Below, one piece after another: positions 339 to 16,098 of a DNA stretch of 64,000 nt (its first letter is position 1; every line of letters starts with the position of its first letter). The stretch lies in IMG/VR virus record IMGVR_UViG_3300029955_000001, one strand, 5' to 3'. This DNA comes from a virus (lineage: Duplodnaviria > Caudoviricetes). Under the pieces are notes generated by a model. That model was not told the origin of the DNA and did not search any database. It saw only the letters and a program-made list of their open reading frames with translations. A program made the position numbers and the translations under genes.

Positions 339-1061
339 TTAACTATTATTACGTAACTCGTATTCCAAATAGAAACGCGACCAGTCTTCTAATTTACCAA
401 CATCACTAGAAATTTCATGCAGTATATCATCTGCGGTCATGAATCCTAACAACAGTAATTCATCTTCGTTACTTAAAACTTCAAGATCTTCAGGGACAGT
501 GACTGACATTACTACACCAACATGAACAGCATGAACTTCGTGATTAAGAAGAATAATTAAGTCTTCTGATTGGATTGGAATTTGTCCCAGTGCAAAAGAT
601 GCCGTGGCTGTATCACTTCTTAATTCTTCATCACGTTCACGGAAAGCAGCGTCATGAATAGTTTGAGCCAAATTAATTACAGAATCGCTATTATGAACGA
701 TATCCATTAAGTCGATATGTCCGCCAAATCCAATACTTATCTTTTCAGCTAATTTCTTTTCACCTACCCCTTTACCACGTTTATATGCAAGATATCGAAC
801 AACACCATCTTTACCTAATTGTTTAATAATTAGATACGGAATAATTTGCCGATATGATTTATCTTCTTCTAACACAGAACGCTGCTTAATTGCAAGATGG
901 CTGATTACTTCTTCGATGAATTTACTTAGTGAAAACTTTGTAACACCCACACGAAAATCTGTTGCGAAGTGTCTTACGCCCTGATCGTTATGATTTTCGA
1001 AATACTTAGTCTCGGCAGCGAGTATAAACTGAGAGTGTTTCTTTGGAGCTAATGCGCTCAT
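339..1061 (-). CDS. Nudix/MutT-family phosphoesterase (COG4112/YmaB-like)
   Basis: E-E-D-x-S-Y-R-Q-I-I-P-Y, Y-K-R-G...E-K-K-L...S-I-G-F-G-G-H-I-D and the Nudix-like helix AAFRERDEEL. Confidence 0.8.
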   Translation of the reverse strand: MSALAPKKHSQFILAAETKYFENHNDQGVRHFATDFRVGVTKFSLSKFIEEVISHLAIKQRSVLEEDKSYRQIIPYLIIKQLGKDGVVRYLAYKRGKGVGEKKLAEKISIGFGGHIDLMDIVHNSDSVINLAQTIHDAAFRERDEELRSDTATASFALGQIPIQSEDLIILLNHEVHAVHVGVVMSVTVPEDLEVLSNEDELLLLGFMTADDILHEISSDVGKLEDWSRFYLEYELRNNS

Positions 1062-1120
1062 TTTCTGTTCCTATATTTAAAAATGTAAATCTAAGCTTTG
1101 TTTGCTTTTCTATGAGCATA

Positions 1121-2077
1121 TCACTTTTTCATACTGACGCCATTTCGATGTGCATATTCGTATAGAAATAGATCAGTGCGAAGTTCATCAATAGTAAGTG
1201 GAACGTAATGCGACGTATCAGTTTCATCTCTACGACCTACTAGTTTATTTGGGTCAGATGATTTGTAGAAGTATGATGCTAGTTTTTCTTTATGATCAGG
1301 AAGAACATTTACAGCCAGTTCATCTCTTTTAGCTGATAGAAATGTACGAACGTCGTCTTGTGATCCAAATAGGTCTTCTAAGAATGCTAAAACAATTTCA
1401 GTCGGGACATTGATCTTAGCCATTTCTTCGTGAAGAAGTTGTTTGCCTTTTTGAACTGCTGCTGGAATACTTTCTTTCCAACTAACAGTAGTTGTAAGAT
1501 AATGCAATCCTCTTGCGTATTCTATTGTTATGGCATATACGTCATCTGCGAATTGTGAAAACGTAGCATTTGTTTCTACATGATAAGTTTGTTCGTGTAA
1601 TCTCTGAGATAGTTTGCATAATTGAGAAAAGTCGTTATGTTCTTCTGTTTTTAAGAAATGTTCAAGTAAACAAACAGTGCTCAGTACATCAGGGATAAAG
1701 TTAATAATCTCTTTACCTTTAATCAACTGTCCTTCGATAGTAATGAGACCATAAATAGCACCACATCCCATAATGTCAAATGCGTGCCCTGGTGTTCCGT
1801 CTACCCATTGATCGGCATCTAATGGATTCATCTTTTCCAGAGGACCACCTTGACGAAAATATCTAGTAGTAACAACAAATTCACCAGCGCGTCTATCACA
1901 AGGTACTGTATGATCCCAAGGTTCTACCTTTTCAGCATCGTAGAACGCACGTGCTTCTTCTAAAGTATAGAAAGGCCCGAACTGTTTACGGTTAACAGGT
2001 GGGAAAAAATCTTTCTGAGGTTGTAGAAAAATTAAGGCGCCATAGATAGCAGTGCCTGAGATTTGGTAGCGAGTCAT
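1121..2077 (-). CDS. Hypothetical phage protein
   Basis: 318-aa ORF with AAGGA SD; start overlaps the stop of the upstream small ORF. Confidence 0.75.
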   Translation of the reverse strand: MTRYQISGTAIYGALIFLQPQKDFFPPVNRKQFGPFYTLEEARAFYDAEKVEPWDHTVPCDRRAGEFVVTTRYFRQGGPLEKMNPLDADQWVDGTPGHAFDIMGCGAIYGLITIEGQLIKGKEIINFIPDVLSTVCLLEHFLKTEEHNDFSQLCKLSQRLHEQTYHVETNATFSQFADDVYAITIEYARGLHYLTTTVSWKESIPAAVQKGKQLLHEEMAKINVPTEIVLAFLEDLFGSQDDVRTFLSAKRDELAVNVLPDHKEKLASYFYKSSDPNKLVGRRDETDTSHYVPLTIDELRTDLFLYEYAHRNGVSMKK

Positions 2078-2211
2078 TATTTATCCTTTGTTTGGCTGTT
2101 AATAAAATATTCGTTCATCTTACGTAAGTTTTCAAAATACTGAAAATAAGCACTTGTCCATACGTTCATGATTTCGCGGGCAAGAATATAAGTTGGAAAT
2201 GATATAAACAT
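2077..2211 (-). CDS. Small hypothetical protein (44 aa, MFISFPTYILAREIMNVW...)
   Basis: Manual translation; AAGGAATAAAA-ATG; TAATG coupling to the next gene. Confidence 0.55.
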   Translation of the reverse strand: MFISFPTYILAREIMNVWTSAYFQYFENLRKMNEYFINSQTKDK

Positions 2212-2221
2212 TTTTATTCCT

Positions 2222-2530
2222 TTATTTGAAACTGGTTATTTCGGTATCTCTCCATTCGGAATTACCGGCTGCATCCTCAAACTTCTGTTGCATACGCTTA
2301 CGTTTAACACCAGATATCAACGCTTTAATGAAACCAATTTTTAGTATCCTGAATTCTAAAGTAGGCTTCATTAAACGTTTATTTTCTTTTTCTTTTACGT
2401 TTTGCATAATTGTATCAAAACGAGCGCGGTCAAAGCGTTTACCAAGTTCGTATGTAATTTGTCCAGCAATCTCTGGTGTGACATACTCTTCGAAATACTG
2501 CCGCGTGTTACATACTTTAGCATTATCCAT
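2222..2530 (-). CDS. Hypothetical protein
   Basis: 102-aa ORF, co-oriented and tightly packed. Confidence 0.65.
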   Translation of the reverse strand: MDNAKVCNTRQYFEEYVTPEIAGQITYELGKRFDRARFDTIMQNVKEKENKRLMKPTLEFRILKIGFIKALISGVKRKRMQQKFEDAAGNSEWRDTEITSFK

Positions 2531-2595
2531 TTATATCACCTTCATTAAAAGTATTTCTATTAGTACAAGTATATTTAGAAGTTATTCGTGGTATT

Positions 2596-3738
2596 TCAGT
2601 TAATACAAACAGCTTCTTTTTCTGTTTTTATTTCATTCCACAGTGCAGAAAGTGCTTGACTTGTTGTTTGAATAACGAAAATCTGAGATTCTCGTCTTAC
2701 AGCAGAAGGTTCTACGCGTGTCATTAAGTTATTAATTTTAGTAACAAACGTTGTCTCACGAGAAGGATAACTACCTTTTGTATTAGTGAACGTTAACTCG
2801 TACATTGTGCCGAACCGTAATTGAATAAAAGAACAATCTCCTTGGTTAGCATATCTTGCAACAGCATGCACGGAATCATCCTTTATTACTTTACCCGCTA
2901 CTACAGAACATGACTTCGGCAACACTGCTTCGTTATTGAAAATTTCAAAACTTAGTTCTGTTAATTTATTTAGTTCTTTTTCAAAAACAAATTCATCATT
3001 TACGGGTTCTGCTTCGTCATACGCTATTTTAAATTCTTTTTCAAATTCCTCTTTTAACCCCACAAACGTATAAGTTCCATCTGATTGTACCCATGATTTT
3101 TCTAATGGATGGTAGTACCATAAATTAGGATTAGCGTTAGGAACTACAATAAAAATCGCTTCTAGCGTAATTAAAGCAGACAGTGGTAGCTTAGCTCTTA
3201 GAACAATAGTAACGTCTTCCGTACTACCACTATCACCATATAAGCCTGTTGCGATTTCTCCAATTACATTGTGCGAAGCAGGAACACCGTTAACTACTAA
3301 CGGAGGTTTGACGTTTTTAAACACACTGCGTTTAACAGAGGCCATTATGCTGCCTAAAAGTAAACTTAACTCATTATTAAGCACTACGTCGTTAGTTGGA
3401 TGAAAATTAAATAATTCAATTGCTTCCTTTAATCGCGGGGATGGTTCTGGTCCGAATACTTCAGAATAGTTTAAATATTCTTTAAGTTTAGAAGCGAACG
3501 AACCATCCCCTTCAAATACGCATTTTACATTAGCTTTATCTGATCGAAACTCATTAATGGCACTTTCAAATCGTGTATTTGTTTCAATGAACATCTGCTT
3601 GTCATTAGGAAACAGTAAACCAAGATTTTGCATTAATTGACCAAAGATAGTTACAACGATATTGATTTCTTTCTCTGGCCGTGAGTCTACACGCAACTTA
3701 TCAAGTAGTTCTAATAATTCCATTTCGCATTCTTTCAT
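2596..3738 (-). CDS. Hypothetical protein
   Basis: 380-aa ORF in an operon-like run. Confidence 0.75.
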   Translation of the reverse strand: MKECEMELLELLDKLRVDSRPEKEINIVVTIFGQLMQNLGLLFPNDKQMFIETNTRFESAINEFRSDKANVKCVFEGDGSFASKLKEYLNYSEVFGPEPSPRLKEAIELFNFHPTNDVVLNNELSLLLGSIMASVKRSVFKNVKPPLVVNGVPASHNVIGEIATGLYGDSGSTEDVTIVLRAKLPLSALITLEAIFIVVPNANPNLWYYHPLEKSWVQSDGTYTFVGLKEEFEKEFKIAYDEAEPVNDEFVFEKELNKLTELSFEIFNNEAVLPKSCSVVAGKVIKDDSVHAVARYANQGDCSFIQLRFGTMYELTFTNTKGSYPSRETTFVTKINNLMTRVEPSAVRRESQIFVIQTTSQALSALWNEIKTEKEAVCIN

Positions 3739-3740
3739 CT

Positions 3741-4430
3741 TTACATTTCCAAGGAATCATCTTTTAACAAAAACTTAGGAATGCCAGTTAGTACAAAATC
3801 ACTAGTAGCTTGGGTTCCTTCTGGCAATATTGATTCTACCCATACATCTTCAGAATATAATTCTGGTATACTGGTATTGCCTGTCTTTTTAATAATTTGA
3901 TTTGCGTATGCTGCAATTTCGAATGCTTCGACCCGGTCAACATAACGAAACTTACTAGTTAAGAAACCTTGATCATCTGTATACTTACAAGATTTTCCAT
4001 TTACTCCAAGTTCACCCATTCCCCAAATAACATGATGATGTCTTCCTGGTCTAGGTACTTGAAATATAAGGCCAGACGGATGTCGAATAGCAGAAGCTAA
4101 AATTGTTTCAAAACTATTAGAATCCTCACAAACGGATTTGTGATATAACGTAGACCACGCGCGCTGTGTACCATACAGCAACATGTATTTTACAGATTGT
4201 ACATTAATTGGTTTACTTTCTATTTTTCTGTAAAATACTTCTACCAGTAATTTATTTACGTTAACCCTTAAAAATAATTTAATATATATTAACACTGGTA
4301 ATATAGCAAAACATCCTATAACAGGATGACTTGTATGAAGTGTATAATTGACGATTAAAAATAAACTAATCAAATAAAACACATACAAGACGAAATTCGT
4401 TTTTCCAATAAACCACAATGTCCATTTCAT
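3741..4430 (-). CDS. Membrane-anchored protein with a conserved phage domain (SAIRH...RHHH...QGFLTS...RYVDRVEA...LYSEDVW)
   Basis: Two N-terminal hydrophobic helices; C-terminal motif set typical of a widespread uncharacterised phage domain. Confidence 0.7.
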   Translation of the reverse strand: MKWTLWFIGKTNFVLYVFYLISLFLIVNYTLHTSHPVIGCFAILPVLIYIKLFLRVNVNKLLVEVFYRKIESKPINVQSVKYMLLYGTQRAWSTLYHKSVCEDSNSFETILASAIRHPSGLIFQVPRPGRHHHVIWGMGELGVNGKSCKYTDDQGFLTSKFRYVDRVEAFEIAAYANQIIKKTGNTSIPELYSEDVWVESILPEGTQATSDFVLTGIPKFLLKDDSLEM

Positions 4431-4439
4431 TTTATTCTC

Positions 4440-4765
4440 CTAATATCTTTTAAAACCGTTATCAAGTAAATTCGAAAGAAGAAGCACTTTACGTTTACAC
4501 AATAATCCGTAAGTCTTTCTTGATTCTTGTTCTGATTTTTGGATTAAGTTATAAACTTCATTACGATTGGGGCAAATGAAAACGCCCCATTCATTAAAGA
4601 TAAAACCATATGACAATCTGATTATACGAGTGTCTATTTTTCTTCATCGAATAAATGGAAAGCGTTGCTCCATTCACGACCATCAACTTCTCGATAGATA
4701 CTTGCTATTTCATTATTGTTTTTATGTATTCGATTTGAAAATAAATCAAGAACACTTTGTGACAT
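4440..4765 (-). pseudogene. Hypothetical gene broken by a frameshift in an A5 run (or a sequencing error)
   Basis: GGAGAATAAA-ATG at 4765 reads MSQSVLDLFSNR...FDEEK then TAG; the -1 frame continues IDTRIIRLSYGF...GFKRY to TAG at 4440; the junction is the T5 run at 4637-4641. Confidence 0.55.
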
Positions 4766-4778
4766 TTTATTCTCCATT

Positions 4779-5153
4779 TTAATTTGGATTGAGTAGATAT
4801 TCTCTTATTTTTTTCTTTGCTATTTCAACATCAGCTTTATATCCAATGCCTTGACAATGTGAAGATATTTCATTATGTAATTCTTCTATTAAAGCCATTG
4901 TCTTATCAGCTTGTTCAATAGTCAAACCTTTAGCTGGATATTTTGGATCAACTACCTTCACTGGTAAAATATCATACTTAAAACCATTCCAATGATACTC
5001 GAGTTTAGTATGACTGGAATAATACGTTACTCCAGCAGTACCTATTTTTGGAAAATGTGATTCATTTTCATATTCTCGTTTAAGAGGTAAAGACAGATAT
5101 ACTTCTTTTTTATTATAAGCAGGATAAGTAACAGTCATTATGTCAATATTCAT
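4779..5153 (-). CDS. Hypothetical protein
   Basis: 124-aa ORF, TAATG-coupled to the upstream gene. Confidence 0.65.
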   Translation of the reverse strand: MNIDIMTVTYPAYNKKEVYLSLPLKREYENESHFPKIGTAGVTYYSSHTKLEYHWNGFKYDILPVKVVDPKYPAKGLTIEQADKTMALIEELHNEISSHCQGIGYKADVEIAKKKIREYLLNPN

Positions 5154-5428
5154 TAACGTTCCTTTATTTCTTTTAAGGTATTCGTTGTCGAGTCAAATTT
5201 AAATAGAGATATTTTAGATGTCTCATTGTCAACAATCGATAACGTAATATCATCCGATAGTGGGATTGGTTGATTTATGCACTTTTCTCTCTCTTGTTTA
5301 CCTTTTGTTATTTTAGCATTAAGATTAACCAAAGCATAAAACAAAACAGCAATAAACGCACCGCCAATAGCGTATCCAATTAATAGAAAAGTAATTAACC
5401 ACTCAGAAACTGTTAAGGGAATGTTCAT
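5153..5428 (-). CDS. Small single-pass membrane protein
   Basis: Hydrophobic stretch WLITFLLIGYAIGGAFIAVLFYALV. Confidence 0.65.
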   Translation of the reverse strand: MNIPLTVSEWLITFLLIGYAIGGAFIAVLFYALVNLNAKITKGKQEREKCINQPIPLSDDITLSIVDNETSKISLFKFDSTTNTLKEIKER

Positions 5429-5478
5429 TTGGTTTTATGCGAGATACCTCGCTATTTATTGCGAGGAGGGATAGCATA

Positions 5479-5504
5479 TAGGGTAATGTAGTCACATTAC
5501 CCTA
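5479..5504 (-). terminator. Hairpin (11-bp stem) downstream of the IscB-derived gene
   Basis: TAGGGTAATGT-agtc-ACATTACCCTA; minus-strand 3' tail ATATGCT. Confidence 0.6.
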
Positions 5505-5539
5505 CCCTCACGCATTCCTTTCTATAGTAGCTATCATGA

Positions 5540-6473
5540 TTATATTGGTACAGCTATGTTTTTACCACCAGACATAGATAGATAGTGATATAGTTGTAAA
5601 CAGTAAGAATAACCATCATTCTTTTGAATGAGTGCACACTGGTTCCATTTAATAGATATTGGTTTATCATTAAATATTACTGAAAAATACCCACTAGCTC
5701 TAATCACTACTCTACTAAAAATAGCTTTATTAACATAGCCTAATGTCGTTTTAATTTCTCTAGTAAACTTTACTAAATCACCAGTAGCAAATCAAAAGAC
5801 ACGTTTAGACATTTTACTAATAGTACGAGGGAATCCGTATTGATCTGGTTTAGTACGCTGGTATTGTCCTCGTCCTGTACATTTAATTTCTAGATGTGGT
5901 CTACGCCAGTTATTTACTACTAAAACATTACCGACACAAGCAGCATCTAAGGCATGGGTCTTAGGTATATTAAAATTATGTCGATTATATTTAGTTTGAC
6001 TACCAGATCCTGTATTCACTGGTAATCCAGTATTTATACATTCTAAATATAATTGATTACGCGTAGCATTGACAGCAGCAGCATCGCGTAGTGGTTTTTG
6101 AGCAGTAGATAATATCTTTTTCAGTAATTCAGGCTTATCTTTTAAAAACACTTCTATCAGTATATTACTTTTCTTTTGATTACAATCATGACAGGCTATG
6201 CCTAAATTGGATACACGATTAGATCCACCTCGACTACGCGCTACTATATGCTCAATTTCTAATGGTCGATCATTTTCTGTCTTACAATACATACATTGAT
6301 GATCGTATTTCTCTAGTAGATATTCTTTTACGTCGTAATTAAACAATGTACCCTGTTGATATTCAATACCTGTAATCTCTGGTTTTACTAACTTTTGCAT
6401 ATCAAATTTGACTCTCTCGATAGCTAACCATGATAATTGGAGGGTATTCAAATGGTGAGTTATAAATAGCCAT
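5540..6473 (-). pseudogene. iscB: N-terminally truncated IscB (IS200/IS605 OMEGA nuclease) derivative: RuvC-II, HNH, RuvC-III and C-terminal domain; one frameshift and one in-frame TGA
   Basis: [91 protein letters not shown]; reading through TGA 5792-5794 gives FATGDLVK..RVVIRASG..QKNDGYSY; SD + ATG at 6473 is one base out of frame. Confidence 0.85.
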
Positions 6474-6506
6474 TTACTCTTCCTTTATTTTAATATATTT
6501 TTATTA

Positions 6507-6764
6507 TTACGTTTGGACAGACACGTTCTCAAATGGGAATGTATCTTTCGTTGGATTTTTAATATAATCAAGTAAGTTTGCGCGCGCAATATTTCGCAAT
6601 ACTTTTAAGCTAGCTGAATCTCTGCTTAAATAATATTCCAAGTATGCTTTAATGGTTTCATCTAACAAATGCTCAACTTTTGGCATTTGTTCTTTACTTA
6701 AACCTTCACGTTGTTCTTCGTCCATCCATTCAGCAAATGTTTTATCAACAAGGTTATGCAACAC
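6507..6764 (-). CDS. Hypothetical protein
   Basis: 85-aa ORF between the nucleotidyltransferase and the IscB derivative. Confidence 0.55.
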   Translation of the reverse strand: MLHNLVDKTFAEWMDEEQREGLSKEQMPKVEHLLDETIKAYLEYYLSRDSASLKVLRNIARANLLDYIKNPTKDTFPFENVSVQT

Positions 6765-6782
6765 GCTATCATCGATGCTCGT

Positions 6783-7835
6783 TTATTTTCCTTTGTCCGC
6801 TTCCCATAAATACTTGCAGTCAGTAATAAACTTCTCAATATGTTCTTGAGTTGTTTGTTCTTGAATAATCCAGTCTGTAAAACTAAATCCTACAGGGGAT
6901 CGAGATTTGCAAAACTCCATGAACTGTCCTAGTTCTTTTCCAACAAAACCAGAAATAGAACCAATAATAAATCCATTCCATTTTGTTTTAATTACTTTTT
7001 GTTGTTTGTGTTTAGCATACTCTAAAGTAAGCTGTTCAGCAAAACCAGGAAATATAGCTGGATTAGTAGCGCATAATAACCAGTAGTTTTTCTCTTCTTC
7101 TCGTTTAACAGATACCTTATCTTGGACATACGCAGACCACTTGTACTTGTCAAGTTCTGGTTTATCTTCTATCCATTTCAGAAACGCTGTATAAGTAGGA
7201 CGTTTAATATCACGAATACGACTAATGTGATTTCTATTATCAAGTTTAAATATCTGACGATGGAAATATGGACTAGAAGCAGCATACTCAAAGACATCTT
7301 CTAACGTTTCGAAACCCTTGATATGCCGCGAGAAATCATAACCAAGGAATTTAAATACAGCACTTACGTCCCTACTTACTAAAACTTCAGCATAAGCATG
7401 CGTTCCGTCTCTCAGTATTTTCCACAGTCCGTTATGCCCGTACTTAAACCCCATTTTGTGCGCTATGCGACCCATTAAATTACCCAGATCATTAAATGCA
7501 AAATATACTTGGGCAAAGAAGAAATCTATCCTGGGCGCTTTGATTAAATCAATTTGCATTCCACGATAGTCAAATGACACTACATCATTATTTAATAAGT
7601 CTTGTGGTTTAAATACAGCACGAATTATGTCTATCCAATTAGGTGGAAGATTATCTGATTCAATAAGAATGTCAGCATCCCCAAATGATTCTTTTGATGA
7701 GTATGCTTCAATTGGATTAGCTAGGCATGTTGGAAAAGCATCGTGCAACTTACTTAAAACGTCACCGACAATCGCAAAATATTCTGTAGTTGTCTTCCTT
7801 GTCACACCTACATGTTTCATCGCGTTACCGCCCAT
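6783..7835 (-). CDS. Pol-beta superfamily nucleotidyltransferase
   Basis: MGGNA start, K-E-S-F-G-D-A-D-I-L (G-D-x-D) motif, third acidic residue in QIDLI, then F-A-F-N-D-L-G-N-L-M-G-R. Confidence 0.8.
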   Translation of the reverse strand: MGGNAMKHVGVTRKTTTEYFAIVGDVLSKLHDAFPTCLANPIEAYSSKESFGDADILIESDNLPPNWIDIIRAVFKPQDLLNNDVVSFDYRGMQIDLIKAPRIDFFFAQVYFAFNDLGNLMGRIAHKMGFKYGHNGLWKILRDGTHAYAEVLVSRDVSAVFKFLGYDFSRHIKGFETLEDVFEYAASSPYFHRQIFKLDNRNHISRIRDIKRPTYTAFLKWIEDKPELDKYKWSAYVQDKVSVKREEEKNYWLLCATNPAIFPGFAEQLTLEYAKHKQQKVIKTKWNGFIIGSISGFVGKELGQFMEFCKSRSPVGFSFTDWIIQEQTTQEHIEKFITDCKYLWEADKGK

Positions 7836-7863
7836 GTTATTTCTCCTTTTATTTTTAACGGAA

Positions 7864-7895
7864 TAAAATGGAAGAACTTTCGTTCTTCCATTTTA
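7864..7895 (-). terminator. Intrinsic terminator (14-bp stem, GAAA loop on the minus strand)
   Basis: TAAAATGGAAGAAC-tttc-GTTCTTCCATTTTA. Confidence 0.75.
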
Positions 7896-7898
7896 TAA

Positions 7899-8432
7899 TT
7901 ACTTTTCTGAATCGCCAAACAATAATTTCTGAGGAATGCTTTTCGTTACGACAGTAAAGTTTTCTTCATCATCAGATGTATAAGCAAGATGAATAATACG
8001 ATCGAAAACATCTGCGTCCCATATACAGTTCTTCATTGGAGCTACACACGGATTACCACCCAAAACATCAATCAATTCTGGGATCTTGCCGTGGTGCCAA
8101 CAAATCGCCACTACTTTTCCTTTATACTTCTTTTTACTAAGTAGACGTTTAGCTAATACACTAAAATCTTCATCAGACCATTTAGTTTCTACTTTAATCT
8201 TAACAGCATCAGCAAATGGCGTAATTGTTTCGATAGGGCGCACACTACCTTTTGATTTTTTAGTGGCTATAACGTGATGCACTTTATGAGAGAATGGTTT
8301 ATATAGCCCTAAGCCTACTGCACGAGTATGCCCGCGTACAGAAAGATTAGGACCGTCGTTAGGTCCATCAACATGCGATTCGCCTGGTTTCTCAGCATGT
8401 CGCACAATAAATATATGCGCTGGGTAAGTCAT
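7899..8432 (-). CDS. Histidine phosphatase superfamily protein (SixA/PGM-like)
   Basis: IFIVRHAEK (RHG-type motif), LSVRGHTRA, RPIETITP, VAICWHHGKIPEL. Confidence 0.85.
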   Translation of the reverse strand: MTYPAHIFIVRHAEKPGESHVDGPNDGPNLSVRGHTRAVGLGLYKPFSHKVHHVIATKKSKGSVRPIETITPFADAVKIKVETKWSDEDFSVLAKRLLSKKKYKGKVVAICWHHGKIPELIDVLGGNPCVAPMKNCIWDADVFDRIIHLAYTSDDEENFTVVTKSIPQKLLFGDSEK

Positions 8433-8485
8433 GTTTAAATTCCTCGTTCAGTGAACACATAGCATTACTGTTGTGTATTTTAAAA

Positions 8486-9019
8486 CTATGTTAATAATCG
8501 TTCTCGGTAGTTTTGGATAGGTGATTCCGCGTCATCGACGCTGCTCCATGTAACCCCTCGTAGCGCCCTAGAGATGTTTGCCTGAGAAGTGTTGTATTTA
8601 GTTTCTAATTCAGCTAATGTCATCTCCATATCCATTTTCTTAATCCGACGCATTTCAATTACTGTCTCAGCATTTAAAACTGTCGTACTACGATTTTTAC
8701 AAGACGATTTTATTGTAGACAAACAACAGTTATTAGGACTGAAATTCTTTGTTACATCTAAACGTATAACTTTAAAAGGAACATTAATTAATTCTGGTTG
8801 GTAAGATAACTCCCTATCTACCCATTTAATGAAATTACATATTCCTTCAGGATTTGTATCTATCCAAACTTTTGCTACTGTAATCCCTTTACCACCGTAA
8901 CTAGGATAATTTTTATTCGAACTATCGTAACAACGCTGGATAAAACTAAGCCATCTAGCGTAATACTTATGTTTTTTCATACCGTGCTTAACTGCGCCGA
9001 GATGATTCATTTTGTGCAC
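8486..9019 (-). CDS. Degenerate HNH homing-endonuclease-like protein with a C-terminal HTH
   Basis: HGMKKHKYYARWLSFIQRCY..NYPSYGGKGITV..W is the typical N-terminus; the catalytic DRIDN..NCRW..N segment has decayed to IRLDV..NCCL; C-terminal LAELETKYNTSQANISRALRGVTW. Confidence 0.7.
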   Translation of the reverse strand: MHKMNHLGAVKHGMKKHKYYARWLSFIQRCYDSSNKNYPSYGGKGITVAKVWIDTNPEGICNFIKWVDRELSYQPELINVPFKVIRLDVTKNFSPNNCCLSTIKSSCKNRSTTVLNAETVIEMRRIKKMDMEMTLAELETKYNTSQANISRALRGVTWSSVDDAESPIQNYRERLLT

Positions 9020-9078
9020 TTTTTAAGAGTGAAAAAATAAAAAAATGTTAAACGGTGGTAGTTTAACATTTTTTCTAG

Positions 9079-9396
9079 TTATTCTTCGCTATCGGAAAAC
9101 GACTGTATAATAATCTCAACTTGTTCAGACAGATTTTTAACTGTCATATCGAGATTTATTTGTTCTCCATCAATTACGATACCGAACTCTTCTTCTAGTC
9201 GTTCTATAAGCGACGCTTCGTCAATATAATCCATTCCAAGGTTATCGCCCAAAACAGATTGAGAATTAACATCATCGGGCGGTGAGTTTGTTATATCGAT
9301 AATAATATTTTTTATTTTATCAAGTACAGTCATTTCGATAGCGTCTTCTATTTCACTTCTGTTCTCAACTACAATATCTAACTCTTCATCAGCCAT
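9079..9396 (-). CDS. ACP-like protein lacking the phosphopantetheine serine (LGMDYID)
   Basis: ACP pattern V.DKIK.II..LGMD-Y-ID...L.ERLEEEFGI.I...MTVK.L; codon TAT at 9226-9228. Confidence 0.8.
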   Translation of the reverse strand: MADEELDIVVENRSEIEDAIEMTVLDKIKNIIIDITNSPPDDVNSQSVLGDNLGMDYIDEASLIERLEEEFGIVIDGEQINLDMTVKNLSEQVEIIIQSFSDSEE

Positions 9397-9417
9397 TATT
9401 ACTCTCCTTTTTTTACT

Positions 9418-9873
9418 TTACGTGGCATCTTTATCAAGCGTAAGGTTAACTTGCATGCGTGGTTGACCTGCTGGGCGTTGTTGTTTTAAATCTTCAATGC
9501 AATACAAAGAGTCTGGGTCTAACATCCCCATTATGTTTGTCCGTTTGAAAGCAGGTACTTTAATCACATACCAACATAGTGGACACCATGCTAGATTTAT
9601 ACCTACTTGACTCAGACGATCTGTTACGAGTCCGTAGTATTTACGAATAACCGGTTTTTGCATTGCCTCAGTGAATTTCAGACTAATTTCTGGTCCTAAA
9701 ATGTGAGCCATAGCATCACGGTCAACTGGTATAAAATATCCATACGGATTACCAGACCCTACTACTTTTGGCGTATCGTTCCGATTGCAAATAGCAACAA
9801 TCATATCTGTTGCCTTAGTTACGCTATATGGGAACGAATGCTTTTCTTCATTGACAAAATTATACACAGTCAT
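9418..9873 (-). CDS. Hypothetical protein
   Basis: 151-aa ORF with AAGGAG SD. Confidence 0.7.
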   Translation of the reverse strand: MTVYNFVNEEKHSFPYSVTKATDMIVAICNRNDTPKVVGSGNPYGYFIPVDRDAMAHILGPEISLKFTEAMQKPVIRKYYGLVTDRLSQVGINLAWCPLCWYVIKVPAFKRTNIMGMLDPDSLYCIEDLKQQRPAGQPRMQVNLTLDKDAT

Positions 9874-9970
9874 TTGTTACTCCTTACAAGTTTAATATAA
9901 CATTAGCACTATGCGTAACATGCTAACTCTCCCTACATTCCCTCCCAGTATTAATGAGAGGGAATTCCTT

Positions 9971-10489
9971 TTAAAGAATACCGAGTTTCTTGTAGAGTGC
10001 GTATTCTTTAATTACCGGCATGAATTTCAGAATCCACTGAAAGAAAAGAAGAATTGCTAAAGAGTTTGCTCTCTTCACGCGACCTTCTTCCGTATTCGTG
10101 AAATCGAAACTACACTTACCTTTCAAATTCCCAGTGGAAATCCCTGCAATATAAAACGGAACAGGGTTAGATACGTAAGACGATTCTCCGTCTCCAGCAA
10201 AGTATAAACTATGCTCGCTAAGAATACCTGATGAGTTAGAGAAAATCTTTGGCGTAATAACACCACTTTTTATTTTTTCTTGAAGGACATAGAAAAGTTT
10301 CTGATCTTCATTGAAAGTAGAAAAGCCAACTGATTGGCTTCTAACAAAGAAATCAGCATCGATACCGTACGATTTATTGAGTGGTAACTTTGCATACGAT
10401 CCTGCATATACGGGATCATCGAATACTATTCCGTTAAACAAACAAAAATCTCTAACCTGATCGATAGCTACTGTGGGAAGGTGTTTCAT
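9971..10489 (-). CDS. Hypothetical protein
   Basis: 172-aa ORF with AAGGA SD. Confidence 0.7.
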   Translation of the reverse strand: MKHLPTVAIDQVRDFCLFNGIVFDDPVYAGSYAKLPLNKSYGIDADFFVRSQSVGFSTFNEDQKLFYVLQEKIKSGVITPKIFSNSSGILSEHSLYFAGDGESSYVSNPVPFYIAGISTGNLKGKCSFDFTNTEEGRVKRANSLAILLFFQWILKFMPVIKEYALYKKLGIL

Positions 10490-10602
10490 AATAGTCGTTC
10501 CTTTAGACTATTTTAATAAACCCGATTGCCTATGCGCTCGGATGTTAGTCGCTGAAAGCACTAACATGAATCCCTCCTCATTAGAAGAGGGCATCATCTT
10601 AA

Positions 10603-10839
10603 TTACTTTGCGTTATTAGTGATGTAATCAATAACGTCTTGCACTGTAATGAACTTTTCTGCTGCTTCGTCAGGTATTTCTAATTCAAATTCATCTTCCA
10701 AAGCCATAACAAGTTCAACAGCATCCAGCGAGTCCATACCAAGATCATCGTCGAACTTCGTAGTTGTTGTAACGTTTTGTTCTAACGAATCAAATTGATC
10801 AGAAACAATTTTCTGAATACGACTTTCAACATTTTTCAT
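10603..10839 (-). CDS. acpP: Acyl carrier protein
   Basis: DDLGMDSLDAVELVMALEDEFELEIPDEAAEKFITVQDVIDYI: canonical ACP with the intact DSL serine. Confidence 0.95.
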   Translation of the reverse strand: MKNVESRIQKIVSDQFDSLEQNVTTTTKFDDDLGMDSLDAVELVMALEDEFELEIPDEAAEKFITVQDVIDYITNNAK

Positions 10840-10856
10840 GTAATCCTCACTGAGAT

Positions 10857-11162
10857 TTAGTCTTTGTCATATATTGCGCGGTTTATGATTTTTCTCTCTT
10901 TGTAATTATCAACTGGCATAAAGTCACTAGTGACAACATAAATATTTACGTATATATTAAATGTGTTACGAGCAAAGTCACTGGCGATACTCCATGCTGC
11001 TTTTTCATCCGGAATAAGTTCTTCTCCAGCCCGACTATCCGGGAAATAGTCAGTTGTTGCTACCAATCCGTCTAGCTTTTCGAAATGAACCATAAAGCCA
11101 GGTTTAATTGGTTTTGCACGACCGCCGCTATTAATTATTTTTAACGCCTCTTCCATTTTCAT
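10857..11162 (-). CDS. Conserved phage hypothetical protein (start moved to ATG 11162)
   Basis: AAGGAGAGCGAT-ATG at 11162; GFMVHFE..DYFP..NIYVV motif. Confidence 0.7.
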   Translation of the reverse strand: MKMEEALKIINSGGRAKPIKPGFMVHFEKLDGLVATTDYFPDSRAGEELIPDEKAAWSIASDFARNTFNIYVNIYVVTSDFMPVDNYKERKIINRAIYDKD

Positions 11163-11199
11163 ATCGCTCTCCTTGAGTAACTCAGTAACTATCAAGTTA

Positions 11200-11210
11200 G
11201 TGATATATTA
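11200..11210 (-). promoter_or_regulatory. Putative phage early promoter core TAATATATCAC
   Basis: Identical to 178-188; lies between the arms of inverted repeat AACTCAGTAA/TTACTGAGTT. Confidence 0.45.
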
Positions 11211-11230
11211 CTGAGTTATTTTAGATTTAA

Positions 11231-12205
11231 TTATGCTGACATTGGAGCGTCAATTCTAGCGAGATGTTGGTAATCTTGCAATACAATATCATCAGGTTTA
11301 ATACGTGTGAATGCGCCTTTTATATCATCTAGATTTATAATTGGTTTGACATTATCAGACAATAATACTTTCGGCAATGAAAGATGTTCACGCTTTAGTA
11401 ACTCTTCAGCTTGTTCGAAATGATCCTCGTAAAGATGACAGTTTGCAGCTTGCATTGTGATTGTGCCTGGTGCAAAGCCACTTAAACGCGCCATGATTAG
11501 TAGCTGTAGAGCGGTTGTTGCTATGTTTGTCGGCGCGCCTAAAAATCCATCCATTGAACGGATTGTCATAACAAGATGTAACACTTTTGGATTTTCTAAA
11601 GCTATATAGCGATAATCCATGTGGCACGCCGGGAGTGCTTGTAAATCAATCTCAGCAGGATTCCACGCAGTGATAATCATACGGCGATCAGATGGATTCG
11701 TTAACAATGTACGCAGTACGTTTTCAAGCTGATTAATTTCACGTTCAAATAGAAATAAACCCCTGCTGGAGTCATACATAGCGACCGAGTAACCTAATTC
11801 ACTTAAACGATCAAATTCTTTTCCATCTGAACTATTAATAACACGTCGATCTTTCCACGCTGTCCATTGAACACCGTAACAACGACCGATATCATCTTCT
11901 CCCTTACGATGTGGGTTATCTAACCACGCTTTCGTTTCATTAGCGTTTTGGTTCCATAGATTACATCCCATATTACGAAAATCAACAGCATTATCGTACC
12001 CGCGAAAGAAGCTTAATAACTCTCCTTTAATGCCGTTAAAAAACAACTTACGTGTTGTTAGTAGAGGAAAGAATTCACTAACATCATATTGCAATTGATA
12101 ACCGAGCAATACGCGGCATAGCTTACCAGTGCGCTCATTAAATTGTTCGATAGGACTATTTAAAGTTGCTCTAATCATATCGTGATAGTTTTGCATGTTA
12201 CTCAT
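11231..12205 (-). CDS. thyA: Thymidylate synthase
   Basis: FFPLLTTRKL, GRCYGVQW, RRMIITAWNP, ALPACH (catalytic Cys), RSMDGFLGAPTNIA (Asn retained), HLYEDH. Confidence 0.97.
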   Translation of the reverse strand: MSNMQNYHDMIRATLNSPIEQFNERTGKLCRVLLGYQLQYDVSEFFPLLTTRKLFFNGIKGELLSFFRGYDNAVDFRNMGCNLWNQNANETKAWLDNPHRKGEDDIGRCYGVQWTAWKDRRVINSSDGKEFDRLSELGYSVAMYDSSRGLFLFEREINQLENVLRTLLTNPSDRRMIITAWNPAEIDLQALPACHMDYRYIALENPKVLHLVMTIRSMDGFLGAPTNIATTALQLLIMARLSGFAPGTITMQAANCHLYEDHFEQAEELLKREHLSLPKVLLSDNVKPIINLDDIKGAFTRIKPDDIVLQDYQHLARIDAPMSA

Positions 12206-12217
12206 AATGATTTCCTT

Positions 12218-12481
12218 TTAGTGCATGTGCGCTATGTTTGGTTTATTTAATAGGTCTACAGCGTTAGTAATTGCTTGTTTAATATCGGCTCGTTCAATAT
12301 CAACATTAAACACTATTGCCCTGTCCATAATGTTTTTTTCATAATGACGATGTTGCGCTATGAGAGCTATGTATTGTTGCTCGCGTTCGCCTGTAACACC
12401 CGTGCTTTTAATAGCTTTACAGAACTCACAATCGCAATAATTTTCTGAACTATCAATATTACTAGTTGAATCAGTTTTCAT
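12218..12481 (-). CDS. Hypothetical protein with a CDCEFC motif
   Basis: 87-aa ORF with GGAGG SD. Confidence 0.6.
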   Translation of the reverse strand: MKTDSTSNIDSSENYCDCEFCKAIKSTGVTGEREQQYIALIAQHRHYEKNIMDRAIVFNVDIERADIKQAITNAVDLLNKPNIAHMH

Positions 12482-12482
12482 A

Positions 12483-12653
12483 TTACCTCCGTTGAGTTTT
12501 TTTCATTTCCGAAACAAGTTCCTCATAGTTTTTTCTTTGAGCTTCTCGTAACTTTGCATCTCTATTTGATTTCCATACCCTATAAAGAACAATGAAGCAT
12601 GCGGATAATGATCCTAATACTAAAATCAAAATAATAATCAAAAATATACTCAC
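12483..12653 (-). CDS. Small membrane protein (56 aa)
   Basis: Manual translation from GTG: MSIFLIIILILVLGSLSACFIVLYRVWK...; AAGGA SD; stop overlaps the next SD. Confidence 0.6.
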   Translation of the reverse strand: MSIFLIIILILVLGSLSACFIVLYRVWKSNRDAKLREAQRKNYEELVSEMKKTQRR

Positions 12654-12687
12654 GCTTTATCCTTTTCAAGTTATTTAGAAATCACTA

Positions 12688-13068
12688 CTATTTTATTTTC
12701 TCAGACCTGATTACTTTAGCGCATTCATCTGACGTCATGTTGCCTTCAAATTCTTTACCTGTTGCATCGTATCCAGGTGGTCGAAAAACTGTATTCTCAC
12801 AAAGTCGTGCAGCAAACTCTAGAGTAAGATTAACTATAGCTGCGTTGTTAATACTTAGCTCTCTTGTTTTGCTTATGTAATTACGAAGAAATGTTGCCGG
12901 TGATGTCTTATCCGGCATAAGGAATTTATTTTCTAGATTATTTAGCGCTATTCTTGCATCGTTTATTTCTTTATCAGTGAAAGATACTATTGGCAGCACA
13001 TTTGCGATTGTGACAGGCTCAGGTCCGTATATCGCTTTCATTGTTTCTGGACCATATTTTTCATTCAT
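12688..13068 (-). CDS. Hypothetical protein
   Basis: 126-aa ORF. Confidence 0.65.
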   Translation of the reverse strand: MNEKYGPETMKAIYGPEPVTIANVLPIVSFTDKEINDARIALNNLENKFLMPDKTSPATFLRNYISKTRELSINNAAIVNLTLEFAARLCENTVFRPPGYDATGKEFEGNMTSDECAKVIRSEKIK

Positions 13069-13077
13069 AATTTTTCC

Positions 13078-13452
13078 TTAATGAACGGTTTCATCAGGTG
13101 AAACTAATCCAGCGATATGAACATTTGTGTCTTTTCCTTTTGTTGCAAGAGCAATGGCATCGAATAACGAACCAAACATTAATTCAAGACGAGCATCTTC
13201 ATTAGAATCAACAAACAATTGACGTTTCTCCAGTGGCCAAAGAAGACTTGGTTCGCAACATGAGAAGTCTGGGCAACATTCATTTTTAAAATGATTATGT
13301 TTTGGTTCACCAGCTAACCACGATTCTTCCTGCGCTTTCAACGAGGCTCTGTACGGGACAGCGTACTCTTCTTTCATAATCCATTCTGACCCATCTTCAG
13401 ATTGGTAATGTGTTACTTCGATAGGCAAGTCAACCATTGTAGTAATTGTCAT
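13078..13452 (-). CDS. Conserved phage protein with an ECCPDFSCC motif
   Basis: 124-aa ORF with the Cys cluster HNHFKNECCPDFSCCEP. Confidence 0.7.
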   Translation of the reverse strand: MTITTMVDLPIEVTHYQSEDGSEWIMKEEYAVPYRASLKAQEESWLAGEPKHNHFKNECCPDFSCCEPSLLWPLEKRQLFVDSNEDARLELMFGSLFDAIALATKGKDTNVHIAGLVSPDETVH

Positions 13453-13463
13453 TTTTAATTTCC

Positions 13464-13952
13464 TTAAGGAGTTTGAAAACCTGTGTCAACATGAACAAAG
13501 CTTGTCGGCATTCCGCGCAGAGTATGATGCTGAAGACTCGATATTGGTACTTGATGCTCGCTTACAATCTGTGTATTTATTTTCGGAGTGTTAATCTCTT
13601 TCCATCTACGTGAAAATTCTTTTTCTATTTTAGATACTTCTTCATTATACCCCGCCATCACTTTCTTACCGTCTGGTGTGCGGCGTTGTTGACGATTTAG
13701 TCGATCTATACCGAAATGATTTCGCACTGCTTCCATACTAGCATTACGCCCACATTCCAAGATTAAGTTGTTATATTCCCTATCTTTTTTATCAGATTCA
13801 GTTTCGAATACTAAGCGTTGGGATAGCGGGTTGTTTTTAATCTTGCTATTATAGTGTTGATATTCACTTTCGCCACGAGCGCCGTAGTTGTGTTTCAGAT
13901 TATTTTTTGTCGCTGGTGGGAGACGCATTTGTTGTTGGTTGTTCTCGGTCAT
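13464..13952 (-). CDS. Hypothetical protein
   Basis: 162-aa ORF overlapping the upstream ORF by 53 nt. Confidence 0.6.
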   Translation of the reverse strand: MTENNQQQMRLPPATKNNLKHNYGARGESEYQHYNSKIKNNPLSQRLVFETESDKKDREYNNLILECGRNASMEAVRNHFGIDRLNRQQRRTPDGKKVMAGYNEEVSKIEKEFSRRWKEINTPKINTQIVSEHQVPISSLQHHTLRGMPTSFVHVDTGFQTP

Positions 13953-14226
13953 GACTAAACCCTATCGGTATACGTTGTAAAATTGGAAGAGATACTATCG
14001 GCATTAATGGTTGAACTTGTAGTTCAGATACAATAGTTTTATTACAAGATTCAATTTTCTGAAACCCTATAGATTCTAACCATTCAGAAAATCTGTTACT
14101 TCTCTGTTTTAATTCTTCTTTTTGTTCATCAGGTAAAGCAAGCCAAGCTTCGTAATCTTTACGCTCCTCTTCCGCACGTGCTTCAGCTTGTTCTGGTGTT
14201 TCCCAGTCTCTTTGATCCATTGTCAT
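13900..14226 (-). CDS. Hypothetical protein
   Basis: 108-aa ORF with AAGGA SD and a charged helical N-terminus. Confidence 0.6.
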   Translation of the reverse strand: MTMDQRDWETPEQAEARAEEERKDYEAWLALPDEQKEELKQRSNRFSEWLESIGFQKIESCNKTIVSELQVQPLMPIVSLPILQRIPIGFSHDREQPTTNASPTSDKK

Positions 14227-14241
14227 AATTATTTCCTTTTT

Positions 14242-14280
14242 AGAAATAGCAATCTATCGTAGTGGTAGATTGCTATTTCT
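14242..14280 (-). terminator. Hairpin, 15-bp perfect stem
   Basis: AGAAATAGCAATCTA...TAGATTGCTATTTCT immediately after the stop at 14283. Confidence 0.7.
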
Positions 14281-14282
14281 AA

Positions 14283-15050
14283 TTAAATGTTATTAATTCT
14301 TGTTTGTTCAATATCTTTATTAATACTGTCAATAAATGCTGCGCGTATACTTGGATCAGCGCTTGCTGTATTTATTTTATTGAGAACTTGTTGTGCGTCG
14401 TCATCAATGGTTTGACTTTGTAATATTTCCCCATGAAAAACAATTTCGTAATTCAACGGGCTAGTTAAATTCATACCCATATCTCTAACTGCTTCGCTGC
14501 TTGGAAAACGTTTTGGAAACACATCCTTAACTAACCATGCACTTTGAATTACAGTGTGTGTTGGGTCAGGTTCAAATAAGATAACATCGAACGTGTAATT
14601 TAACTTACGAGCTTTGTCGTAATCTATAAGTTGTGCTATAGACATTTTACAAGCCGCAATAGCCCGTTCATTGCAAATTTGCTGATAGTGTCTACCCCAT
14701 ACTTGGAAAAAAGCATCTACTGGTTTTCCATACTTTTCACCAATGAGAATTTTTAATTCTTTTTTATCTGGAATAAACTGATGATTTAAAGTTGTTGTGT
14801 ATCCGTTATTAATACCGAATATTTTTAATGGATGAAGTTCGAATAACGCACGAGCTGTGGCATTAAAAGTTTTATCTTCTGAACGAATATCGGCAGATTC
14901 TACATATTCAGATTCGCCAAAGCGTGGTGGGTTATTTATAAACCGTGTTACAACAGCGCAAACATTACGTTTAAAATGCGCTCGGTTACTAACCCAGGTA
15001 TCTAATTTATCAATGTTGTCGAAATCTTTAGGATCATTATTAATGTTCAT
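14283..15050 (-). CDS. phiKZ-type tail-tube-like paralog (start moved to ATG 15050)
   Basis: EKYGKPV..FFQVW, LFEPDPTHTVIQSAWLVKDVFPK, A Q.VLNKIN...ADPSIRAAFI resemble phiKZ gp30-type tube motifs (recalled, not searched). Confidence 0.55.
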   Translation of the reverse strand: MNINNDPKDFDNIDKLDTWVSNRAHFKRNVCAVVTRFINNPPRFGESEYVESADIRSEDKTFNATARALFELHPLKIFGINNGYTTTLNHQFIPDKKELKILIGEKYGKPVDAFFQVWGRHYQQICNERAIAACKMSIAQLIDYDKARKLNYTFDVILFEPDPTHTVIQSAWLVKDVFPKRFPSSEAVRDMGMNLTSPLNYEIVFHGEILQSQTIDDDAQQVLNKINTASADPSIRAAFIDSINKDIEQTRINNI

Positions 15051-15051
15051 G

Positions 15052-16098
15052 CTATTCTTTCGCCAATGGATTGTTGGGGACAAATACTTCATCTACCCAT
15101 TTTTCAATTTGTTTCTCTACATCGCCTATAGATTGCATAGCGTCAATTTCAACCATGCGGTGCGATTTAACTCGTAAGCGCGCTAAATAACCGGCGTGTA
15201 CCCGTTCTTTAAAAGCAGTTTCTTCCGTATCAAAATGATTAATGTCCGTATTACGAGCAGTTAACCGTTTAATGCTTTCTTCTAAGGTAATATTAAAAAA
15301 TAGCGTATAATCTGGTTCAAAAATATCACATACTAATTTTTCCAGTGTTGACACAACATCATGTAACCCACGACCATATCCTTGATACGCGCTAGTGCTA
15401 TCCGTAAAACGGTCAGAAATAACTATTTTACCATCTGCGATGGCTGGTTTTATCAACGTATCTAAATGATCAGATCTAGCCGCAGCAAAAAGTAAAGCTT
15501 CTGTTTTAGGACACATCTTTTCACTGAGAAGTAGACCTCTTATTTTTTCAGCTAACGGACTACCACCAGGTTCACGTGTCTGGATAACATCGTATCCTTT
15601 TTCTCTAAGGTAATTTACTAAGAACTTTGTCATTGTAGATTTACCAGCGCCATCAATTCCTTCCACGCTGACCATCCGACCCTTCGACATAATTTTTGAT
15701 TCTTGTTTATGTGTAAAACCGAAAGCACATATACAATCTTCAGCCATTGTCATCAGCGGGAAACAACCGAAGTAAACAACATTACCATATTCAATATCGA
15801 TTGAATAGAAACTCGGGTCACCATTAATTAAACCAATTGATTTAGATTTTGTATTTGGGTCCATTATCAGTGTTCTGATCCACTTAGATAATAGCGCATT
15901 AAAAACATGAAAACGTAATCCATCTACTTTTATATTAATGCGCCTGCAATCAGAAACACTTTCTTCGATACTTAAAAGATAAAATGGCATACTAATCATT
16001 TCTATTTGTACAGATAGTAATTCTTGATCTTCGTCTGATTTATCAAAAGCACTAGGGTAACGTTTAATTTTAACTACGTTCATGATTGGATCTTTCAA
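15052..16098 (-). CDS. tmk: Thymidylate kinase with a ~135-aa N-terminal extension
   Basis: VSVEGIDGAGKST P-loop, TREPGG, LLFAAARSDH, ISDRFTDSTSAYQG, PDYTLFF. Confidence 0.93.
   Translation of the reverse strand: MKDPIMNVVKIKRYPSAFDKSDEDQELLSVQIEMISMPFYLLSIEESVSDCRRINIKVDGLRFHVFNALLSKWIRTLIMDPNTKSKSIGLINGDPSFYSIDIEYGNVVYFGCFPLMTMAEDCICAFGFTHKQESKIMSKGRMVSVEGIDGAGKSTMTKFLVNYLREKGYDVIQTREPGGSPLAEKIRGLLLSEKMCPKTEALLFAAARSDHLDTLIKPAIADGKIVISDRFTDSTSAYQGYGRGLHDVVSTLEKLVCDIFEPDYTLFFNITLEESIKRLTARNTDINHFDTEETAFKERVHAGYLARLRVKSHRMVEIDAMQSIGDVEKQIEKWVDEVFVPNNPLAKE

Follow-up and report, generated by a model that had tools for sequence, protein, structure and literature searches.

A phage locus that very probably carries the inactivated 3' portion of a non-autonomous ISC (IscB) transposon

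What is an IscB-like gene that lacks its first third doing in a phage genome? A sequence-only reading of positions 5540–6473 of a 64-kb stretch of viral DNA (hereafter the window, meaning the whole stretch that was analysed) had proposed two answers: a domesticated HNH nickase derived from an RNA-guided nuclease, or a decaying transposon remnant. The second answer has held up, since a transposon right end and its ATGA target site are attached to the gene while the left end is lost; nothing positive was found for the first. As the features described below suggest, the locus is very probably what is left, at the 3' side, of a dead non-autonomous ISC transposon (IscB/HEARO, IS200/IS605 superfamily) that has been deleted at its 5' side and hit by a nonsense mutation.

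The IscB frame lies on the minus strand. Its open reading frame (5792–6451) comprises 219 codons, from a TTG at 6451 to a TGA at 5794–5792, and beyond this stop the same frame is open for 83 further codons, up to a TAA at 5542–5540. Taken as a whole, the segment 5540–6451 corresponds to positions ~151–437 of the ~437 of IscB, namely RuvC-II, a complete HNH, RuvC-III and, after the TGA, the C-terminal domains:

5795..6451, minus strand: IscB-frame ORF, 219 codons from TTG 6451, homology from ~6442 (profile, Pfam, alignment)
6418-6416, minus strand: RuvC-II Glu (alignment)
6295-6179, minus strand: HNH core (alignment)
5956-5954, minus strand: RuvC-III His (alignment)
5947-5945, minus strand: RuvC-III Asp (alignment)
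5792..5794, minus strand: in-frame TGA on the Gly of the VFGFxTGD motif (alignment column 394)
5540..5791, minus strand: C-terminal IscB coding remnant, roughly part of the WED and the TI domain, 83 codons and TAA (profile positions 367-437, E 5e-17)

The assignment was made with two profiles. The NCBIfam model NF040563, 'RNA-guided endonuclease IscB', matches the remnant with 212.2 bits (E 9e-63), above its curated cutoff of 175 bits, the match covering only positions 146–314 of the 314 in the profile. An IscB profile built from 13 full-length relatives (425–470 aa, 52–59% identical) was run against the six frames of the 64-kb window and gave matches over positions 151–365 (E 2e-112) and 367–437 (E 5e-17), with no match to positions 1–150 in any frame. 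In the alignment of the relatives, the absent positions 1–150 contain the PLMP motif, the DPGS of RuvC-I and the Arg-rich bridge helix; the helix (alignment columns 127–146) has no counterpart within the window. Of the Pfam RRXRR model, the last 30 positions are matched in the remnant.

Within the retained part, the motifs C-x2-C, EH, N, C-x2-C-N and THALDA can be read, together with the RuvC-II Glu in LAIERVKFD. The HNH domain has its catalytic His and both C-x2-C pairs, and is matched by the Pfam models HNH_5 (45.5 bits) and HNH (40.1 bits). Mapping through the PDB alignment ranges shows that the equivalents of OgeuIscB E193 (RuvC-II), H247 (HNH) and H340/D343 (RuvC-III) are present (residue numbers from Kato et al. 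2022, PMC9640706). The RuvC site thus retains its Glu, His and Asp; the RuvC-I Asp (D61 of OgeuIscB) is missing together with its segment, and because of this loss there is no RuvC active site. The C-terminal TAM-reading domain is homologous to that of the relatives (E 5e-17) but comes after the in-frame TGA and is hence outside the polypeptide that the ORF encodes, so that TAM reading is lost. The inventory drawn from the letters alone, with RuvC-II, an intact HNH, RuvC-III and a C-terminal domain beyond the TGA on one side and no PLMP, RuvC-I or bridge helix on the other, was therefore accurate on both counts: the motifs named there are present, and profile positions 1–150 found no match in the window.

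Is the TGA a genuine stop? It occupies the Gly position of VFGFxTGD, which is Gly in 13/13 aligned full-length relatives, and the simplest reading of the premature stop would be a single GGA to TGA substitution. That the codon falls exactly on a Gly position, and that the 8 invariant positions behind it are kept (13-relative set), could be taken to mean that the codon is translated, with Gly inserted as under NCBI table 25 or with ribosomes reading through it, and that the C-terminal domain is made after all. However, TGA is a normal stop in the window, where coding is saturated under table 11 and 17/85 long stop-to-stop ORFs terminate in TGA; reading it as a sense codon mainly yields overlapping, spurious frames, according to the window's coding statistics. 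One substitution is, besides, all that GGA to TGA requires. Decoding of this codon is extremely unlikely.

At the 5' side of the gene, three features bear on its expression:

6477..6486, minus strand: phage-type Shine-Dalgarno AAAGGAAGAG serving ATG 6473 (compared with 37 gene starts of the window)
6402..6473, minus strand: leader ORF, 23 codons from ATG 6473, one base out of the IscB frame (translation)
6398..6400, minus strand: first in-frame ATG, Met of the conserved FDMQK motif, start of the 202-aa form on 8 contig records (P0122)

As had been noted, 33 nt separate the end of the upstream ORF, at 6507, from ATG 6473. The Shine-Dalgarno had been given as AAGGAG; the actual one is AAAGGAAGAG (6486–6477), which resembles those of this phage's genes at 37 gene starts in the window. 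The ATG that it serves opens a 23-codon leader terminating at a TGA (6404–6402) one base ahead of ATG 6400, an arrangement able to permit re-initiation. The IscB frame itself is shut upstream by a TAA at 6487–6485 and has its first ATG only at 6400; neither this codon nor TTG 6451 is preceded by a Shine-Dalgarno. The RuvC-II Glu lies upstream of ATG 6400 and is consequently outside the 202-aa form. The figure of ~310 residues for a protein with both lesions corrected is right in that 310 codons follow from ATG 6473, given a one-base frame change near 6450–6452 and read-through of the TGA.

Where homology begins, the origin of the sequence becomes a matter of interpretation. The heptapeptide NTLQLSW in the IscB frame and the hexapeptide YPPIIM in the ATG frame, both encoded within the ~30 bases that precede the homology, were considered as upstream IscB motifs and rejected, since they are mutually exclusive and neither is significant. 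A programmed frameshift at CCA-TTT-GAA was likewise set aside, as by inspection it appears to contain neither a slippery heptamer nor a slow codon. The 5' frame break may rather be an out-of-frame deletion junction than a mutation in a once-continuous gene. The deletion breakpoint would fall between 6473 and 6442, and these weak resemblances do not fix its exact position within the ~30 bases. Of the two lesions called in the sequence-only reading, then, the TGA stands, with Gly in 13/13 relatives and the stop recurring on 13 contig records, whereas the 5' one, taken there for a mutation, may be such a junction.

Both sites lie at the edges of T runs, and one base fewer plus one substitution would open the frame, as expected if the lesions were sequencing or assembly errors in a truly continuous gene of ~310 codons from ATG 6473. 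The population records speak to this directly. The protein is represented by three sequence records (219, 202 and 219 aa), which lie on 13 contig records of up to 287,693 bases that come from JGI, Logan and ENA; the two 219-aa records differ solely in the residue given for the TTG start, L or M. All three records terminate at the TGA and none begins at ATG 6473, which means that the same stop end and a start downstream of the shift recur in three independent sources. No 226-aa or 310-aa variant occurs in the protein's cluster or among the hits, and no intact allele was found among 5.8 billion proteins, the next-best match being a full-length IscB with 59% identity. Moreover, the T runs comprise just 3–4 bases, and the stop arose by substitution and not through an indel. 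An artefact is accordingly very improbable. Because the same protein ends recur on 13 contig records with no intact allele on record, the lesions are real and fixed in the sampled population.

The evidence that decides between the two readings lies in the 111 bases that separate the TAA from the next ORF. This interval folds with -34.8 kcal/mol (z -3.9 versus shuffles) and has the organization of the right end (RE) of ISC elements:

5429..5539, minus strand: right end of an ISC/IscB element, 111 nt (fold and alignment with at least 13 relatives)
5504-5479, minus strand: RE hairpin 1
5475-5465, minus strand: RE core GCTATCCCTCC
5466-5447, minus strand: RE hairpin 2
5446-5429, minus strand: RE tail TATCTCGC..AAAACCAA
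5425..5428, minus strand: ATGA target site adjoining the RE (in the relatives, ...G|ATGA occupies the corresponding position of the alignment)

The order hairpin 1, core GCTATCCCTCC, hairpin 2, T(A/T)TCTCGC...AAAA tail and ATGA is common to at least 13 relatives. The arms of hairpin 2 vary from copy to copy yet still pair: CCTCG/CGAGG here, and CCCCG/CGGGG, CACCG/CGGTG and CCTCGGGG/CCCCGAGG in other copies. Near-identical elements inserted at different sites part just past the ATGA, as seen in three comparisons (L017 with L018; L008, L013 and L089 with one another; L015 with L019). By comparison with empty sites, ISC elements are known to have 5'-GTCA and CG-3' termini and to insert at N|ATGA (Kapitonov et al. 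2016, PMC4810608), and the HEARO RNAs of the relatives start with GTCA, matching these published left termini. Since the relatives diverge after ATGA, the published target is N|ATGA and the HEARO RNAs start with GTCA, I place the end of the element at 5429 and take ATGA 5428–5425 to be its target.

The other end is gone. A left end would consist of 5'-GTCA..., a hairpin and the start of HEARO, and no similarity to any relative's left end or HEARO is seen in the DNA upstream of the remnant; nor does the 64-kb window contain any further copy of the element, the junction or the RE. Excision and copying of an ISC element by a Y1 transposase require the left end with its hairpin (PMC4810608), and because that end is missing, such a transposase would be unable to move this one.

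The site of insertion deserves a comment of its own. The target ATG (5428–5426) is the start codon of a phage ORF, 5153–5428 on the minus strand, which has 91 codons, encodes a predicted membrane protein and matches no family. This ORF is now preceded by the transposon end and lacks a Shine-Dalgarno, and the insertion may have weakened its translation. A similar disposition was observed across the ISC clade: in 14/15 RE junctions, the ATGA beside the RE provides the ATG of an ORF of at least 30 codons (32–239). The 15 junctions are 5425–5428 in the window and L008:1033, L013:8961, L016:1734, L017:1652, L018:10942, L020:10935, L022:10950, L026:10948, L030:3322, L049:4844, L082:2144, L089:1713, L015:1979 and L019:1066. 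Taken over every ATGA of these loci, the background frequency of ORF starts is ~0.49, which gives a simulated P of ~1.5e-4 for 14/15. ISC-clade elements thus seem to lie precisely at the boundary that separates a gene's ribosome-binding site from its start codon, a pattern suggesting that they tend to survive when inserted there. This side observation may be of more use than the relic itself.

Full-length IscB is accompanied by a guide RNA, and the HEARO family (RF02033, gathering score 83) served as a probe for it. As a positive control, HEARO was detected directly upstream of iscB, with 105–147 bits, in 9/10 relatives tested, among them a 342-kb viral contig and two phages, Ralstonia phage Claudette and one of Microcoleus. 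By contrast, at gathering score no Rfam family of any kind matches in the 64-kb window, and no HEARO (omega-RNA) is found within 4 kb of the gene at E values up to 10. The description of the gene as guide-less is therefore correct for the window, and the claim extends as far as the window does. With no guide RNA in these 64 kb and no RNA-binding parts in the protein, RNA-guided targeting is impossible.

Two observations were made on the way. Nodularia phage vB_NspS-kac68v162 (L002:210-3699) has a full-length iscB with no HEARO match at gathering score; this gene is flanked by an IS607-family transposase, one 'transposase' upstream and another downstream, and the region looks like a composite nest of elements. 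On the 342-kb viral contig IMGVR_UViG_3300011202_000010, which also bears a full-length IscB and a HEARO, there is a match to sroH (RF00372) at L007:15219-15358, with 90.6 bits against a gathering score of 80. The sroH family is one of enterobacterial sRNAs.

Could the missing parts be supplied from elsewhere in the genome, the remnant being one half of a split IscB whose partner would carry PLMP and RuvC-I and be accompanied by an omega-RNA? The piece at hand has no in-frame start served by a ribosome-binding site and has lost its TAM-reading domain to the stop. When the front half of the sister copy (L015) was used as a query, no match on the ~288-kb contig appeared among the best 120 of 550 hits. 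A split enzyme is very unlikely.

An empty site in a related phage would have been informative, and the neighbourhood was searched with this in view. At the nucleotide level the locus matched none of 50,697 phage records, and nothing was found with a structural protein of the window as query; because both searches came back empty, this is a phage with no sequenced close relative at this locus. The neighbouring gene 6783–7835 has relatives at 59% identity, which share 0/17 of the other window genes tested (339–15092), including those that flank the relic. Three other neighbour genes used as queries gave nothing, and the searches thus yielded no related phage in which the site is empty. The stretch of small unknown genes here is one that collects selfish nucleases. 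Pfam gave no match on eight neighbouring genes. A separate gene for a 177-aa HNH endonuclease-like protein (8486–9019, minus strand), with a match to PHROG 3377 (E 1e-22) and none to Pfam, is located ~2 kb upstream.

Has the remnant been kept because it is useful, or simply because it is young? Its sequence is strikingly intact. Against the 13-relative set, 70/70 invariant columns are kept before the stop and 8/8 after it; with 52 non-redundant relatives and columns at least 95% conserved, the counts are 48/48 and 7/8, equal to those of functional copies. After the stop, identity to the ten nearest relatives is 27–38%, about 1 SD under the 45% (sd 11) of equally diverged functional pairs. In the tree, the window copy is sister to L015 with a support of 0.98; its terminal branch is 1.4 times as long and its root-to-tip distance is the second longest of 53. 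Tajima relative-rate tests against L015 with five outgroups were not significant, either before the stop (15–23 versus 15–19 unique changes) or after it (8–12 versus 4–6). Because the retained codons show no measurable extra decay, the lesions appear to be recent relative to the 64%-identity split from the nearest relative. From sequence alone, the undegraded state of the retained part and the non-significant Tajima tests would also leave purifying selection on the fragment a possible reading. The conserved residues are, however, kept equally in the HNH, in the RuvC motifs, useless here, and in the portion after the stop, and recency accounts for this better than selection on a protein reduced to its HNH would. 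The conservation pattern speaks for young lesions and does not demonstrate selection.

The same evidence bears on a possible role for the gene in which the phage would use it as a free-standing HNH nuclease or nickase (202–219 aa) that needs no guide and is translated from TTG 6451 or by re-initiation at ATG 6400. The HNH motif is complete and each family-invariant residue is retained, a phage-type ribosome-binding site lies upstream with the leader stop one base ahead of ATG 6400, and the gene recurs unchanged on all 13 contig records. Yet RuvC-II, RuvC-III and the post-stop region, for which an HNH-only protein has no need, are equally conserved, and the product would consist of half a RuvC fold, without its first strands, joined to an HNH. 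Both ATG 6400 and the TGA in the alternate frame derive from the ancestral FDM codons, so the arrangement that could favour re-initiation is incidental. A free-standing phage HNH gene would have an intact ORF, its own start and conservation in related phages, and here the ATG served by the ribosome-binding site is out of frame. Selection in the form of dN/dS is not measurable since all records are identical. This role is therefore unlikely, and I regard as still less likely a broader proposal of co-option by the phage, whether as a guide-independent HNH made by re-initiation and directed, for example, against competing phages, or as a split RNA-guided nuclease acting in trans.

A domesticated form might also be expected to have counterparts, and a search for similarly truncated IscB proteins in other jumbo phages had been proposed. 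None was found among the relatives: the particular truncation seen here, with the front 150 positions replaced by foreign DNA, is absent from 94 related viral and metagenome loci and from 79 genome loci. Of the 94, 78 carry a single-piece, full-length iscB; most of the other 16 are cut by contig ends, and these 16 also include four broken by frameshifts or stops, two lacking the first ~35 positions, two with tandem full-length genes and one distant, HNH-only match. The 79 genome loci comprise 63 that are full length and 8 that are broken, some through internal deletions. The locus has no copy in the viral and metagenome collections, where the best relatives are 57–64% identical. With the lesions recurring on 13 contig records and no intact truncated homologue, domestication is contradicted by the very observations that had been named as decisive.

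Short IscB-like proteins do exist in the protein database (1776 hits), and a family of N-truncated, RuvC-I-less IscB was considered and discarded as their explanation: the short forms are a full-length ORF in the one case traced, contig edges, or frameshifted and deleted copies, and this absence of a family of similarly truncated proteins counts in turn against a stand-alone HNH. The traced call is P0238, a 317-aa 'HNH endonuclease' of Pseudoduganella that is a full-length ORF in its genome (L103:3001-3951, Pseudoduganella namucuonensis NZ_FPBO01000006.1). Many of the database entries annotated as 'HNH endonuclease' or 'partial IscB' (P0127–P0238, 260–320 aa) start at the FDMQ Met or at an internal GTG. 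The short calls are largely start-site miscalls, contig edges or pieces of broken genes.

Some of the loci surveyed are of interest for how iscB genes are arranged and how they die. Tandem pairs of full-length iscB, 400–1200 bases apart, occur at L030:194-3220, L054:248-3868 and L116:2587-6356, as if one element had inserted beside another. Three broken bacterial copies (L166:2797-3768, L126:2785-3918 and L110:753-3876) have internal deletions (from profile position 73 to 188, or 35 to 98) or a 1.8-kb insertion. These broken copies show large deletions to be a usual way in which iscB genes die.

A transposon remnant is thus preferred to a domesticated gene because the RE and ATGA are attached, because the left end, the omega-RNA and ~150 codons are gone, because the ribosome-binding site and its ATG are out of frame, because a Gly has become a stop, and because neither an intact allele nor a like truncation was found. 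Its history could have been as follows. A full element, with a left end, an omega-RNA, an iscB of ~440 codons and a right end, would have inserted directly 5' of the ATGA that starts ORF 5153–5428. The left end, the omega-RNA and some 150 codons from the start of the gene (PLMP, RuvC-I and bridge helix), probably with some phage DNA, would then have been lost in a deletion that joined the rest, one base out of frame, behind the ribosome-binding site and ATG 6473 of a phage ORF. Before or after this deletion, a TGA would have arisen at a conserved Gly codon, probably GGA, and severed the last 83 codons. I infer this order of events, and likewise where the ~30 bases that separate ATG 6473 from the homologous part came from. 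The most that could be produced, and then in small amounts, is a fragment of 202–219 aa with an HNH fold; I consider this fragment functionless.

Set beside known systems, the locus adds a broken copy to a transposon family that is well described, and is not a new nuclease; as one more decayed copy, it matters little in itself. Its relation to the IscB–omega-RNA (OMEGA) nucleases such as OgeuIscB (PDB 7UTN, 7XHT) is one of homology over RuvC-II, HNH, RuvC-III and the C-terminal domains, from which it differs in having no PLMP, no RuvC-I (D61 equivalent), no bridge helix and no HEARO, in having its C-terminal domains behind a stop, and in lacking an in-frame start served by a ribosome-binding site. 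Identity reaches 59% with full-length database proteins and, for the part before the stop, 64% with the sister metagenome copy L015. The full-length relatives have 425–470 aa and a HEARO directly upstream, neither of which applies to the remnant. Among phage-borne IscB proteins, gp57 of Ralstonia phage Claudette (YP_010078647) has a HEARO RNA, and the remnant is 49% identical to the Ralstonia phage copies. Other reduced forms of the IscB lineage differ from the remnant in being conserved families. IshB, a short relative, keeps PLMP, whereas the remnant lacks it and has no conserved counterparts among the relatives examined; in work of 2021 by Altae-Tran and colleagues, IshB was reportedly made up of PLMP and HNH only. 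IsrB, another short relative, has no HNH and is a nickase; like the remnant it is a reduced member of the lineage, and unlike the remnant it keeps PLMP, an omega-RNA and a whole RuvC and forms a conserved family. A description of IsrB is given in PMC9581776. A further parallel is with the ISC non-autonomous transposons that target N|ATGA (ISC1-1_MA, ISC2-1_MS; PMC4810608), with which the locus shares the subterminal hairpins of an RE adjoining ATGA and from which it differs in that the left end and its hairpin are missing. It is a clean, one-ended example of such an element, in which the left end, the guide RNA and the front third of the gene have been lost and the right end and target have been kept.
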